From positions 1-12,273 of the forward strand of contig CAZDWO010000095.1 of the NCBI GenBank assembly GCA_964509175.1: a stretch of DNA of 12,273 nucleotides. Direction: 5' to 3'. This document shows, one piece after another, positions 5,299 through 7,776 of the stretch (positions within the stretch are counted from its first letter, which is position 1; each line of letters starts with the position of its first letter). Position numbers and translations under genes: made by a program. Source of the stretch: an uncultured Saprospiraceae bacterium (GTDB lineage: Bacteria; Bacteroidota; Bacteroidia; Chitinophagales; Saprospiraceae). A model generated the notes under the pieces. That model was not told the DNA's origin. It saw only the letters and a list, made by a program, of their open reading frames with translations, and did not search any database.

Positions 5299-6672
5299 CT
5301 ATCGTCTGGACCGTTTGTTCTTTCGCCAAGGAGCATCTATCTGCCAGTCTCCTGCCATGATACATCCGTATGGTAAGATCTTATCTACTACCTCTCCTAG
5401 TCCGAACTCTTCCATCTGGTCTTGTACGTTCTGAGCATTTTTATAGGCTGATGGCAATTCAGAAATATCGATATGGCCTGAGAAAAAACGGGCATCTATA
5501 CCTGCTGTCTCTTCCATAAATATTTCTGTAATGGTTTTGCCTACTTTCTTTCTGATATGAGCAGTACGACTGATGTCTCGACCAGCACCGTGAGGTGCAA
5601 AACCTAAATTGTTTTCTGTCGTCTCTCCTTTTACCACTAGGATCGGCTCACTCATATTTAATGGAACTAAACGTAAGCCATCTTTAGAATCTGGAACGAA
5701 ACGATCATCGAGTGGTGTAGCACCCTTGGCATGATAGAACTCATCTCCATCTTTAAAGACAAAGTTGTGCTCGTTCCAGAAACGATCGTGTACGTCAGAC
5801 TGCAATTGCATCGCAGTAGCATTATGCAAGACCTCATGGTTTAGTTTAGTCCAGGCTCTTACAATCTGTAAGGCTTCCCAATACTCTTGTCCTTGAGGAT
5901 GTGAGTATGGCAACCATGCATTGTTTTTCATCGTTTTTGGAGAATGCTCTTTTCTGAATTTCTCAGCAGCTTGCATTCCTTGACGATATAGATTGGCTCC
6001 GAAGCCTCGACTTCCGTGATGCGTTACCATTATGGTTTCTCCAGTATCTTCTGATCGACCTACATATAAAAAGTGGTTTCCATCGCCTTGAGTTCCGAGA
6101 TGAGTTTTGGCCAAGGTTTGACTACGTTTACTTTTTAAATAATAGTTGCCTTTTATTTTATCTAATAGTTCTTCTGGTAAATCAAAGTGATCATCTCGAC
6201 CTCCTCCTCCGAAGTGAGTAATGCTCTGAGCCTTATCCAGTACTTCTTTAGGATCCACCTGACCAAATGAAGTCATCATTACAGAGCAACAAACATCTGC
6301 ACTGTGCATGGCTGGGTGGATTGCATCTTTGGTGACAACCACACCTCCCACCGGAATCTGACCAGGAGCACCTGTCGGACAGGCATCTGGCATCACTGCT
6401 CCTCCTATAATGGTCGGAGTTTTCATCAGTGGAATCATCGTGTTTTTTACCGATTCTACATTAGACTCTTCTTCAGAATTTTCTGCTCTGATGTTTAGAT
6501 GATACGGAACAGGCTCTGTATGCGGATCTATAATCTGCGGAGCTCGCTCGTCTAAAAACGTTTTTAGTTGATCTCCTACTAGTCTTTGAGCATTGGCAGT
6601 TATGAGGGCTTCTTTAAACCATTTGCCCTGACGATAACCCATTTCGATTAAATCTTTTCCTGTGATTTTCAT
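5299..6672 (-). CDS. rtcB: RtcB-family RNA ligase (3'-phosphate/2',3'-cyclic-phosphate to 5'-OH ligase), divergent, with ~85-aa N-terminal extension
   Basis: 457-aa ORF. Motifs seen: MPDACPTG..VCCSVM (metal-binding Asp/Cys region), GDGNHF (Asn-His pair), THHGSRGFG (HxGSRG), and APHGAGR (guanylylated-His motif). The first-site His is replaced by Cys (PDAC instead of PDxH). The N-terminal ~85 aa has no counterpart in E. coli RtcB. Confidence 0.8.
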   Translation of the reverse strand: MKITGKDLIEMGYRQGKWFKEALITANAQRLVGDQLKTFLDERAPQIIDPHTEPVPYHLNIRAENSEEESNVESVKNTMIPLMKTPTIIGGAVMPDACPTGAPGQIPVGGVVVTKDAIHPAMHSADVCCSVMMTSFGQVDPKEVLDKAQSITHFGGGGRDDHFDLPEELLDKIKGNYYLKSKRSQTLAKTHLGTQGDGNHFLYVGRSEDTGETIMVTHHGSRGFGANLYRQGMQAAEKFRKEHSPKTMKNNAWLPYSHPQGQEYWEALQIVRAWTKLNHEVLHNATAMQLQSDVHDRFWNEHNFVFKDGDEFYHAKGATPLDDRFVPDSKDGLRLVPLNMSEPILVVKGETTENNLGFAPHGAGRDISRTAHIRKKVGKTITEIFMEETAGIDARFFSGHIDISELPSAYKNAQNVQDQMEEFGLGEVVDKILPYGCIMAGDWQIDAPWRKNKRSRR

Positions 6673-6711
6673 TTCTTTTTTATTAAGTACACTACAAAGA
6701 TGAGTTAGTAG

Positions 6712-6730
6712 TACGCAGTTATTTTGCGTA
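6712..6730. promoter_or_regulatory. candidate operator palindrome TACGCA-N7-TGCGTA in the rtcB/WYL divergent intergenic region, overlapping the -7 box TAGTTTTG (6729-6736) of the WYL gene
   Basis: Perfect 6-bp arms with a 7-bp AT-rich spacer. The motif is duplicated at 2661-2679. A second small palindrome GGGTTtAACCC lies at 6736-6746, just downstream. Confidence 0.5.
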
Positions 6731-6756
6731 GTTTTGGGTTTAACCCAAAATCAAAT

Positions 6757-7776
6757 ATGGCAACTAATAAAAACGCTCTTATAAGATACAGAACTATAGA
6801 TAAGTGTCTGCAGAATCGATCTAGAAAATGGAGTTTAGATGATCTGATTACTTCATGTTCAGATGCCTTATATGAATATGAAGGCAAGGATACTCATGTG
6901 AGCAAAAGGACAGTACAGTTAGATATCCAAATGATGCGTAGTAATAAACTAGGCTATAACGCACCTATCATTGTATACCAAAGAAAATATTACACCTACG
7001 ATGATGAGAACTATAGTATTACTCAGATCCCCATTACAGGTATCGACATGGATATCCTTAAAGAGTCCGTAGAAATGCTAAGTCAGTTTAAAGATTTCTC
7101 GCTCTTCTCCGAACTCAATGGTGTGATCCAAAAACTAGAAGACAAAATCCATAGAGAATCGAATAGTCTAGCTCCAATCATACACATGGAAAAAAATGAT
7201 CAGCTCAAGGGGCTGCATCATCTGGACACTATTTATCAGGCCATTCTTAAAAAGATAGCTCTCAAAATTCACTATCAGTCCTTCAAATCTAGAAAGCAAA
7301 ACATCATTACACTGCAAGGTTACATTCTTAAGGAATATAATAATCGTTGGTTCGTGGTAGGACGAGTTCCAGGTGAAGAACGTATAATGACATTAGCCCT
7401 AGATAGGATTGAGAAGATAGAATTTGATTTAACCATTAGTTATTCTATTGAGGATTTTGATGCTGACAATTATTACAAAGACACATTCGGTGTGACCGTG
7501 CTTAATGAGAAGAGCCTGATAGATATTATCTTAAAAATAGATCGAGCTAATGCTCCTTATGTTTTAACCAAGCCTTTTCATCATTCTCAGAAACTAATAG
7601 AACGCCTAGAGAATGGAGCTATACTCATATCTCTAAGCGTTCATCATAATTATGAGATCGAACGTTTGATTTTGGGATTCGGGAATGGTATAGAGGTTAT
7701 CAAGCCTCGTAGACTTAGATCTCGGATGAAAACCATTGTAAAGAAGATGGCGACCAATTATACAATAGAGTTATAA
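6757..7776 (+). CDS. HTH-WYL-WCX domain transcriptional regulator (YafY/PafBC/BrxR-CapW class)
   Basis: N-terminal winged-HTH-like region (KNALIRYRTIDKCL..). WYL domain (..NRWFVVGRVPGEERIMTLALDRIEKIEF, i.e. WYL-like WFV plus LDRI). C-terminal WCX-like region ending ..GIEVIKPRRLR. The start is probably the second Met (MATNKN, 6757), because the first ATG (6724) lies inside the operator/-7 box. It is divergent from rtcB. Confidence 0.75.
   Translation: MATNKNALIRYRTIDKCLQNRSRKWSLDDLITSCSDALYEYEGKDTHVSKRTVQLDIQMMRSNKLGYNAPIIVYQRKYYTYDDENYSITQIPITGIDMDILKESVEMLSQFKDFSLFSELNGVIQKLEDKIHRESNSLAPIIHMEKNDQLKGLHHLDTIYQAILKKIALKIHYQSFKSRKQNIITLQGYILKEYNNRWFVVGRVPGEERIMTLALDRIEKIEFDLTISYSIEDFDADNYYKDTFGVTVLNEKSLIDIILKIDRANAPYVLTKPFHHSQKLIERLENGAILISLSVHHNYEIERLILGFGNGIEVIKPRRLRSRMKTIVKKMATNYTIEL

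Follow-up and report, generated by a model that had tools for sequence, protein, structure and literature searches.

A predicted WYL-controlled RNA-repair regulon with a conserved DriD-like operator in Saprospiraceae and related bacteria

To our knowledge RtcR, which responds to tRNA halves through a CARF domain, is the only RNA-repair sensor that is understood, and we know of no account of how RNA repair is switched on outside the Proteobacteria. The DNA studied here is a stretch of 12.3 kb of metagenomic origin (contig CAZDWO010000095.1; JGI 3300038671; in the following, the window means this whole stretch), and its closest relatives are Saprospiraceae of the phylum Bacteroidota. It carries a gene for a predicted RtcB RNA ligase and, divergently oriented, a gene for a regulator with a WYL domain. 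A preliminary description of the sequence had singled out this pair. The observation is real and conserved but was framed too narrowly. The module of the window is the Band-7/tRNA-like flavour of a predicted RtcB cofactor system and not a minimal pair of RtcB and WYL protein; new is a conserved DriD-like operator and a WYL switch for this known kind of RNA-repair system.

Several described systems resemble parts of the locus. In Salmonella, RtcR senses tRNA halves and induces rsr-yrlBA-rtcBA (PMC7790460, PMC10159003). The Rtc operons of E. coli and Salmonella share with the window a dedicated regulator of the nucleic-acid-sensing kind that is encoded divergently from the RtcB operon, and in Salmonella the operon also contains rsr and yrlA (PMC7790460). 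In contrast, the window system has no CARF/sigma-54 AAA+ regulator, no RtcA and no sigma-54 promoter; its sensor domain is a WYL domain, and its RtcB belongs to another subfamily (PDAC type with an N-terminal helical domain). In Anabaena the ribbon-helix-helix repressor TrcR jointly controls a silent tRNA array, rtcB and a slipin/Band-7 operon, which are induced by translational stress (PMC8421152, PMC10272220). The same three outputs are found together there (trn L-array operon, rtcB and alr0739-alr0740 slipin) and at our locus, and the Anabaena factor is autoregulated. However, TrcR acts on direct repeats at the -10 position and is not homologous to the WYL factor, and the tRNA array of the window has its own promoter, leader open reading frame (ORF) and terminator and no WYL box.

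Burroughs and Aravind (2016, NAR 44:8525) predicted RtcB/Band-7(SPFH)/b7a-tRNA and RtcB/Rsr/Y RNA systems, as summarized in bioRxiv 10.1101/312249. As far as that summary describes them, the window agrees in that a tRNA-like RNA lies in front of a Band-7 gene in the vicinity of RtcB and in that it contains a YrlA-like module, and Balneolaceae relatives of the window contain Rsr (TROVE and vWA domains) and Y-RNA-like matches in the same slot. The window differs from the summarized systems in two respects. First, in place of a single tRNA look-alike its RNA is a longer transcript, in which a pseudoknot accompanies two circularly permuted tRNA-like units in tandem; second, a defined operator links the system to a WYL regulator. 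A full-text literature search, in which the 2016 paper was represented at second hand only, returned no described link between RtcB and WYL proteins or between WYL proteins and RNA repair.

The regulator itself belongs to the family of factors with a winged helix-turn-helix (wHTH), a WYL and a WCX domain. Two groups of this family have been described: activators that are activated by single-stranded DNA (ssDNA) and have a helical-bundle linker, such as DriD and PafBC, and shorter repressors that are released by a ligand, such as CapW and BrxR (PMC10853764, PMC11662680). In DriD and PafBC three helices lie between the wHTH and the WYL domain (PMC10853764).

The ORF at 5299-6672 on the minus strand (457 amino acids) is an RtcB ligase as judged from its Pfam score, its predicted fold and its catalytic residues, and was assigned to a PDAC subfamily of the RtcB 3'-phosphate/5'-OH RNA ligases. 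The Pfam RtcB model (PF01139) matched with 118.8 bits at a cutoff of 27, the alignment being confined to residues 181-438. No NCBIfam equivalog reached its cutoff (best PRK09588, 78 bits vs 407); the NCBIfam models align from about residue 70-94 on and score far below their cutoffs, and the database offered no specific family for the RtcB protein or for the WYL protein. An AlphaFold2 model built with 33 homologues had a pLDDT of 90.6. In a Foldseek search it matched human RTCB (8odp, E 2.7e-26, TM-score 0.69) and the Pyrococcus horikoshii enzyme (1uc2/4dwq, E ~1e-24, TM-score 0.68-0.69), and the threshold of E 1e-3 was passed by RtcB structures only. The placement of the protein in the RtcB family by the preliminary description is thus borne out.

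The residues expected of an RtcB active site could be located by alignment to the P. horikoshii protein. The guanylylated histidine of the HGAGR motif is H361 (in PHGAGR; H404 in P. horikoshii), the metal-binding aspartate and cysteine are D126 and C129 (in SADVCCSV; Asp95 and Cys98), and the histidine ligands H200 (GNHF), H218 (THHGSRG) and H302 (NEHNF) align to H203, H234 and H329. All six residues are invariant across the 33 subfamily members, as are the HxGSRG and HGAGR motifs noted before, in the form of THHGSRG and PHGAGR. In the sequence VMPDAC the window protein has C98 where canonical RtcB has the histidine of MPDxH; M94, D96, C98, P99 and G101 are invariant in the subfamily. The reported exchange to cysteine is therefore real, but its labelling as the loss of the first metal-site histidine is doubtful, as the residue sits in MPDxH, whose histidine we take not to be among the metal ligands in published RtcB structures. 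The predicted activity of the protein is the GTP/Mn2+-dependent joining of 3'-phosphate or 2',3'-cyclic-phosphate ends to 5'-OH ends.

The N-terminal addition is shorter than the ~85 amino acids given at first. In the AlphaFold2 model it consists of a three-helix domain of ~45 amino acids (helices 5-10, 18-28 and 33-43) and a linker, and the RtcB core begins near residue 58. The domain gave a sub-threshold match to PF13735, the tail of domain 2 of tRNA nucleotidyltransferase, in 19 of 22 homologues (best E 1e-4), and a sequence-profile search of the PDB with it found nothing. Tentatively, it could be a tRNA-binding domain. The subfamily is large, with ~70% identity across Bacteroidota and Balneolaceae. 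A canonical MPDAH-type RtcB, linked to WYL and Band-7 genes in one of the compared loci (L091; loci are cited by such numbers), has a similar N-terminal segment, GxDLxxLGY.

Divergent from rtcB, the ORF at 6757-7776 on the plus strand encodes a protein of 339 amino acids. Pfam detected the WYL (PF13280, E 5.6e-11) and the WCX domain (PF25583, E 1.1e-12) and returned no HTH match. The AlphaFold2 model contains helices 2-19, 27-42 and 50-61 and a beta wing (71-81), as in a wHTH, and then three linker helices, the WYL beta domain and the WCX domain, so that the HTH-WYL-WCX architecture proposed earlier is recovered. Foldseek placed DriD first (8tp8, E 3e-14), over the full length of ~340 columns, and then PafBC, CapW and BrxR. 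The C-terminal half of the model superposes on the DriD C-domain with a target TM-score of 0.78-0.81 and an rmsd of 2.4-2.5, at a sequence identity between the two proteins of 13-17%. Judged from profiles and model, the ORF encodes a transcription factor of the DriD/PafBC type with DriD as the closest solved relative. Its most likely start codon is the ATG at 6757 (MATNKNALIRY...), because homologues and the public gene call agree on it. A TTG at 6724 was rejected as start; it overlaps the operator described below and disagrees with both.

The linkage of the two genes was examined in 59 genome loci encoding close relatives of the RtcB protein. By tblastn, a WYL homologue lies divergently upstream of rtcB in ~44 of them, including Saprospiraceae, Lewinella/Neolewinella, Portibacter, Balneola/Balneolaceae and Rhodothermales, that is, in two phyla. 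When ORFs were clustered over 54 loci, the WYL gene was the sole broadly conserved neighbour of rtcB (40 loci); the gene for a TPR protein followed with 7 and Band-7 with 6. The pairing is thus conserved in other genomes. A Pfam scan of the 10 larger ORFs of the window detected no RtcA, RtcR (CARF/sigma-54 activator), TROVE/Rsr or archease, in agreement with the preliminary description. In eight Balneola-type loci a 509-amino acid Rsr/Ro60 protein (TROVE, E 1e-24, and vWA_Ro60) is encoded between the WYL gene and rtcB, and Y-RNA-like matches occupy the same interval in both Balneola-type loci that were scanned (L010 and L017). These Balneolaceae rsr loci share the WYL gene, the box described below and the RtcB subfamily with the window. 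The Rsr (Ro60)/Y RNA feature is accordingly one of the related Balneolaceae loci, the window having no TROVE protein and only a sub-threshold YrlA match.

Alignment of the intergenic regions between the WYL gene and rtcB revealed a conserved palindrome, ACTACGCA-N7-TGCGTAGT, of 19-23 bp with the consensus ACTACGCAAAATAATTGCGTAGT. In the window this operator O1, TACGCAGTTATTTTGCGTA, is situated at 6712-6730 in the divergent promoter region, in the same place as in relatives, and is a predicted site for a dimer of the WYL protein. It lies 27 nt upstream of the WYL start codon and ~40 nt upstream of that of rtcB, in whose promoter it overlaps the -33 position. The pattern YRCGCA-N7-TGYGYR was then searched in 1.18 Mb of the compared loci, about 17 kb being examined per genome. 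The search gave 90 matches where 0.8 were expected, and each of them falls at a promoter, be it that of rtcB, of rsr, of the Band-7 RNA or of one of a few other genes.

The presence of the box follows that of the WYL gene. A box within 200 nt upstream of rtcB and a WYL gene occurred together in 37 loci, the WYL gene alone in 6, the box alone in 4 and neither in 11 (Fisher p 4e-5). Hence TACGCA-N7-TGCGTA is found in 37 of the 43 loci having a WYL gene, and of the six exceptions three have a degenerate box at the same position and three an intervening rsr gene that bears the box. Among the eight Balneola-type rsr loci, five (L017-L019, L023 and L027) have the box at rsr and at rtcB and three at rsr only.

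The box also stands in a fixed register to the promoter. A sigma-70 promoter scan of the window was uninformative (15 hits vs 19 expected), and promoters were therefore read as Bacteroidetes -7 motifs. Over 87 distinct sites a TAnnTTTG-like -7 motif follows the box at invariant distance (T33 100%, T34 92%, G35 83%), and the -33 TTTG is absent at these sites from its usual place 19-21 nt from the -7 motif.

The layout resembles that of DriD. The Caulobacter factor has the same domain order and fold and a palindromic box of the homodimer type, ATACGAC-N7-GTCGTAT, which is found ~17 nt before the start codon of driD genes and which, at a fixed distance to the -10 region, overlaps the -35 region (PMC10853764). 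Compared with CTACGCA-N7-TGCGTAG in the window family, the half-sites share the TACG core and the spacing, and both boxes lie near the start of their own regulator, over -35 or -33, and at a fixed distance to -10 or -7. There are differences as well. The DriD regulon comprises recA, didA and dnaG, whereas that of the window concerns RNA repair; the window host uses Bacteroidetes-type promoters; and the DriD pocket residues Tyr240 and Arg288 are not conserved in the window family. From its co-occurrence with the WYL gene, its invariant register and its DriD-like layout we assign the box to the WYL factor as its predicted site. The distance of 27 nt between O1 and the start codon of the regulator implies autoregulation.

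One could object that rtcB and the WYL gene are neighbours by chance and that the palindrome is an unrelated terminator or repeat; indeed, a terminator scan lists both palindromes of the window as weak hairpins. This explanation is contradicted by the comparative data, in which pairing and box are conserved over two phyla, the promoter register is invariant and the box co-occurs with the WYL gene, and we regard its probability as negligible.

The second palindrome of the window, operator O2 at 2661-2679 (TACGCAAAAATGATGCGTA on the minus strand), was found by its match to the pattern, and TATGTTTG stands behind it at the usual spacing. The tRNA-like RNA and the Band-7 gene come next, and O2 is predicted to mark a WYL-dependent promoter for them. 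The regulator had been considered the only dedicated partner of RtcB; with a second operator in the same window this no longer holds, and the suggestion that the neighbouring field of tRNAs and tRNA mimics belongs to the system is supported. An operator before the Band-7 RNA is also present in L006, L036, L055 and many metagenome loci. Of 35 Band-7 loci surveyed, metagenome loci included, 24 have a box 630-890 nt upstream of Band-7. Apart from the window, this spacing is seen in L006 and L036 and in 21 of the 35, mostly from metagenomes, and many of these have no rtcB within 7 kb. Two loci, L070 and L091, show the order WYL gene, two boxes, YrlA-like RNA, Band-7 gene and canonical RtcB gene.

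Additional boxes in the same promoter register were observed before unannotated genes ~1-1.2 kb downstream of Band-7 in Chitinophaga-like loci (L071, L079-L081, L088, L093-L095 and L098), and further copies lie at 14273 in L094 and at 1031 in L099. They indicate that the regulon extends beyond rtcB and Band-7. In L075 the two ORFs that occupy the equivalent position (215 and 669 amino acids) had no Pfam match.

The Band-7/SPFH protein (848-1954, minus strand, 368 amino acids; Pfam Band_7, E 1e-32) is encoded by a gene that is a conserved neighbour of RtcB, of tRNA arrays and of the box, in metagenome loci as well as in genomes. Upstream of it, a structured RNA at 2249-2637 (minus strand) was recognized by covariation and by a match of 2278-2376 to the Rfam YrlA family, which with E 6e-5 and 36 bits stays below the gathering score of 69. 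Its 5' end is inferred at 2637 from the position of the promoter, and the transcript may run on to the Band-7 start. A 5' domain is followed in 2249-2432 by two tandem circularly permuted tRNA-like units and an H-type pseudoknot. The same architecture was found in 33 loci: after the 5' domain, unit 1 comprises a closing stem, T arm, closed acceptor hairpin and D arm; a linker leads to unit 2 with T arm, closed acceptor hairpin, D arm and anticodon arm; and the pseudoknot concludes the structure. The RNA has the circularly permuted tRNA topology of YrlA.

The structure was evaluated in an alignment of 24 sequences, with 500 shuffles and slid partners as controls. Pairing was possible in 91.5% of the cells, compared with 35-49% for slid partners, and changes on both sides occurred in 36 of 48 pairs. 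The covariation score was 0.557 vs 0.203 in shuffles, and none of the 500 shuffles reached it. The anticodon loop of unit 2 is mostly CUUUUAA, a copy of that of tRNA-Lys(UUU), and is UUUCCAC in the window. Most likely, this RNA is the b7a-tRNA predicted in 2016, as far as the available summary of that work allows the comparison, but in tandem and inside a longer transcript.

A conserved GGATACCGT motif was noticed ~200 nt upstream of the Band-7 start, past the tRNA-like units, in the window (2050-2250, minus strand), L006, L036, L063 and L067; the structured leader is therefore probably longer than the part analysed. An ORF at 2010-2357 was rejected as probably not a gene, as it overlaps the tRNA-like RNA and has no homologues in the other loci. 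Between Band-7 and rtcB, Flavo-1 RNA (RF01705) scored above the gathering score in L044 (7896-7971) and L045 (7896-7968), on the strand opposite to the genes; these are Flavobacteriaceae loci without WYL gene and without box.

Taken as a whole, the window is best explained as a regulon for RNA repair under the control of a DriD-like, effector-gated WYL activator with RtcB and the Band-7/tRNA-mimic module as outputs, a reading to which we assign a probability of roughly 65%. In this scheme the WYL factor would bind the palindrome as a dimer. One box promoter would drive a monocistronic rtcB, the other the double tRNA-like RNA and then the Band-7/SPFH gene. Nuclease attack on the nucleic acids of the cell would generate the effector, a short single-stranded nucleic acid, and this would be taken up in the WYL/WCX pocket and convert the factor, as with DriD, into a DNA-bound form that recruits RNA polymerase. 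RtcB would then repair broken tRNA or rRNA by joining 2',3'-cyclic-phosphate or 3'-phosphate termini to 5'-OH termini. The Band-7 protein and the tRNA mimic could act as cofactor, scaffold or decoy in the slot that Rsr and Y RNA have in related loci, and a separately controlled spare tRNA array with its own promoter, leader ORF and terminator would replace lost tRNAs. Family assignments, conserved linkage, operator and promoter register, the second such promoter and the structured RNA are computational observations; binding as a dimer, activation and the nature of the effector are inferred.

The locus represents a defined circuit with one regulator, one 19-bp box in invariant register and two outputs, namely RtcB and Band-7 with the tRNA-mimic RNA, and bears on what WYL domains sense beyond ssDNA. 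The circuit is kept in many sequenced Bacteroidota and Balneolaceae, among them cultured strains (Portibacter lacus, Neolewinella, Balneola sp. EhC07). The Band-7-associated tRNA-like RNA, so far a prediction, now has a recognizable promoter and a structure supported by covariation, which makes a role of a tRNA mimic in RNA ligation readily accessible to experiment.

Several points weigh against this explanation. WYL genes were not detected near rtcB in 15 of the 59 RtcB loci. The model of the WYL protein is of moderate confidence (pLDDT 69.8, linker below 50). Binding of the box by the WYL protein is deduced from co-occurrence, position and analogy, and no WYL box is present at the promoter of the tRNA array, so that the link of the array to the module is a physical one. 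Two further points concern the mode of action and the effector and lead to alternatives of their own.

As to the mode of action, a box over the -33/-35 region would equally suit a repressor. The WYL protein might accordingly sit on the box and leave it when the effector appears, like CapW or BrxR. The overlap of O1 with the core promoter and its distance of 27 nt from the regulator's own start codon are typical of autorepression, and CapW, BrxR and the functionally analogous TrcR are repressors. However, the protein has the helical linker of the DriD/PafBC type and the length of an activator, and its best structural matches are activators. Furthermore, the promoters contain no recognizable -33 TTTG and so look activator-dependent, and their box keeps an invariant distance to the -7 motif, as at DriD promoters. 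On balance, a ligand-released repressor appears somewhat unlikely, and by analogy we favour a DriD-like activator mode for the WYL factor.

As to the effector, the characterized wHTH-WYL-WCX factors DriD, PafBC and CapW all sense ssDNA. DriD binds single-stranded RNA (ssRNA) more weakly, and the single RNA tested with CapW, a poly-U 7mer, was not bound. Homology consequently favours ssDNA, since the characterized relatives bind it. With the same architecture but an ssDNA effector, the regulon would contain no sensor of RNA damage and would be a branch of the DNA-damage or phage response that raises RNA repair pre-emptively. Such a role is in line with the Salmonella RNA repair operon, which is reported to be expressed in the SOS response in dependence on Gifsy-1 prophage genes (PMC9879122), and with a DinB-family gene inside related Chitinophaga-like islands. 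On the other side, the boxes are found at the promoters of rtcB, rsr, the Band-7 RNA and a few unannotated genes of Chitinophaga-like loci, and within the ~17 kb per genome none is found at genes of the recA or dnaG type. Moreover, Tyr240 and Arg288 in the ligand pocket of DriD, proposed to clash with the 2'-OH of RNA, align to Thr247 and Tyr/Phe299 in the window WYL family, so both residues proposed to exclude the 2'-OH are replaced. WYL domains can take RNA, as the WYL1 accessory protein of Cas13d reportedly binds ssRNA. We consider the ssDNA alternative quite conceivable, at somewhat less than even odds. For the WYL activator proposed here, RNA fragments such as cleaved tRNA are only slightly favoured over ssDNA as effector, because of the content of the regulon and the replaced DriD residues.

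On the minus strand of the window, rtcB is followed from high to low coordinates by tRNA-Asp, -Glu and -Gln, the TPR gene, tRNA-His and -Met, the tRNA-like elements and the Band-7/SPFH gene. The rtcB transcript is predicted to end at an intrinsic terminator at 5007-5034 (minus strand; an 11-bp stem and then a T run), which is kept in seven of eight aligned sequences; the L044 stretch begins at the T run. Downstream of it, at 4783-5000 (minus strand), alignment revealed a conserved upstream region of ~170 nt with a Bacteroidetes-type promoter (TTTG ... TACATTTG) for the tRNA array. This region has ~70% identity across loci of Saprospiraceae and Flavobacteriaceae, occurs also in Chitinophaga-like loci and matches no Rfam family.

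Between promoter and array the interval 4541-4728 (minus strand) is a candidate attenuator. It consists of a leader ORF of 42 amino acids (4728-4600) and a strong intrinsic terminator (4576-4541) directly before tRNA-Asp. The order of promoter, leader ORF, terminator and array recurs in at least 14 other loci of Saprospiraceae, Flavobacteriaceae and Chitinophaga-like bacteria (including L005, L006, L021, L036, L063, L069, L072, L074-L077, L089 and L090). Each leader ORF contains a stretch of 6-8 nt complementary to the 5' arm of the terminator, which suggests a ribosome-dependent attenuation of the spare tRNA array. Enrichment of the leaders in the amino acids of the array tRNAs was weak and noisy (p 0.008-0.56 per locus), the automatic picking of leaders being partly wrong.

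If all parts are put together, the WYL protein would respond to damaged RNA, such as tRNA halves or other fragments, and not to ssDNA, as the first transcription factor with a WYL domain to do so. It would trigger a three-part response to tRNA damage, in which the PDAC-type RtcB would reseal the breaks, a particle of the Band-7 protein and its double tRNA mimic (with an anticodon loop that is usually a tRNA-Lys copy) would serve as cofactor or nuclease decoy, and the spare tRNA array would be released by a ribosome-stalling leader-peptide attenuator. In this complete form we judge the proposal unlikely.

The accessory tRNA block extends from 2701 to 4506 on the minus strand and was resolved with ARAGORN and Rfam and by reference to related arrays in which the tRNA-Pro and tRNA-Leu genes are intact. 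ARAGORN and Rfam gave tRNA-Asp (4431-4506), tRNA-Glu (4189-4262), tRNA-Gln (4107-4178), tRNA-His (2982-3055) and tRNA-Met (2701-2775), all on the minus strand. The comparison with related arrays, on the same strand, gave a tRNA-Pro remnant with a D1 element (4263-4404) and a tRNA-Leu-derived gene with a D1 element (3940-4100). A tRNA-like gene with a large insert (2835-2972, minus strand) has a 7-bp acceptor stem, a D arm and a T arm; within its anticodon stem (ACCGC...GCGGT) there is an expansion of ~60 nt with its own hairpin, and it was not called by ARAGORN even with introns allowed. The TPR protein (3072-3650, minus strand) is encoded next to arrays in at least seven loci.

D1 is a 90-nt element present in two copies (3985-4074 and 4275-4364) that are 82% identical, have fold z-scores of -3.9 and -5.2 and show compensatory changes in their hairpins. 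The first copy replaces the D and anticodon arms of the tRNA-Leu(tag)-derived gene, and the second follows the 5' half of the tRNA-Pro remnant (~4370-4404). The element has no Rfam family and was absent from 97 other loci in an nhmmer search; as no other copies were found, it was treated as a probable lineage-specific insertion.

Elements of this kind raise the alternative that RtcB is a maturation enzyme which joins tRNA halves after intervening sequences have been excised from the array tRNAs, i.e. a protein-dependent tRNA splicing in bacteria. In addition to the two D1 copies, the ~60-nt anticodon-loop expansion of the gene at 2835-2972 would fit this idea, as would a tRNA-Pro(TGG) of L005 (10114-10360) with an insert of ~190 nt in the T loop, flanked by CCCGA...TCGGG; this tRNA-Pro is not called by ARAGORN, and its insert has no Rfam family. 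However, neither a splicing endonuclease nor a bulge-helix-bulge motif was found, and most WYL-RtcB loci have no tRNA array at all. With D1 missing from the other loci and the interrupted tRNA-Pro lacking its 3' half, decay or insertion is the simpler explanation, and we hold a splicing function to be very improbable.

The array tRNAs are atypical in other respects. None of them encodes CCA, and tRNA-Asp (4431-4506) and tRNA-Glu (4189-4262) have U at position 37. Arrays of 3-16 tRNAs beside Band-7 occur in many loci, some with odd anticodons. Related arrays (L033, L036, L044, L045, L047 and L069) have the anticodons ATT (Asn), ATC (Asp) and TAT (Ile), uncommon among the tRNA genes of bacteria. 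In Chitinophaga-like islands as in L075 (4471-6125), an RNaseH-like protein (PF04308), an RNase T-family exonuclease and a DinB_2 protein are encoded between the tRNA array and the Band-7 promoter; the proteins of such islands are possible extra RNA-processing components.

The genes flanking the module in the window, coding for an S41 peptidase, a LytTR protein and a DUF4197 protein, have an ordinary chromosomal look and are not conserved neighbours. Finally, a direct repeat of 54 nt (78% identical) was noticed at 5240-5293, in the 3' untranslated region of rtcB, and at 3807-3860, upstream of the TPR gene; blastn found no copy in the other loci. Within the repeat, TTGACATTTAGTCAA forms a perfect palindrome, and compensatory changes are seen in a hairpin (CCGAAAC..GTTTCGG vs CCGATAT..ATATCGG).

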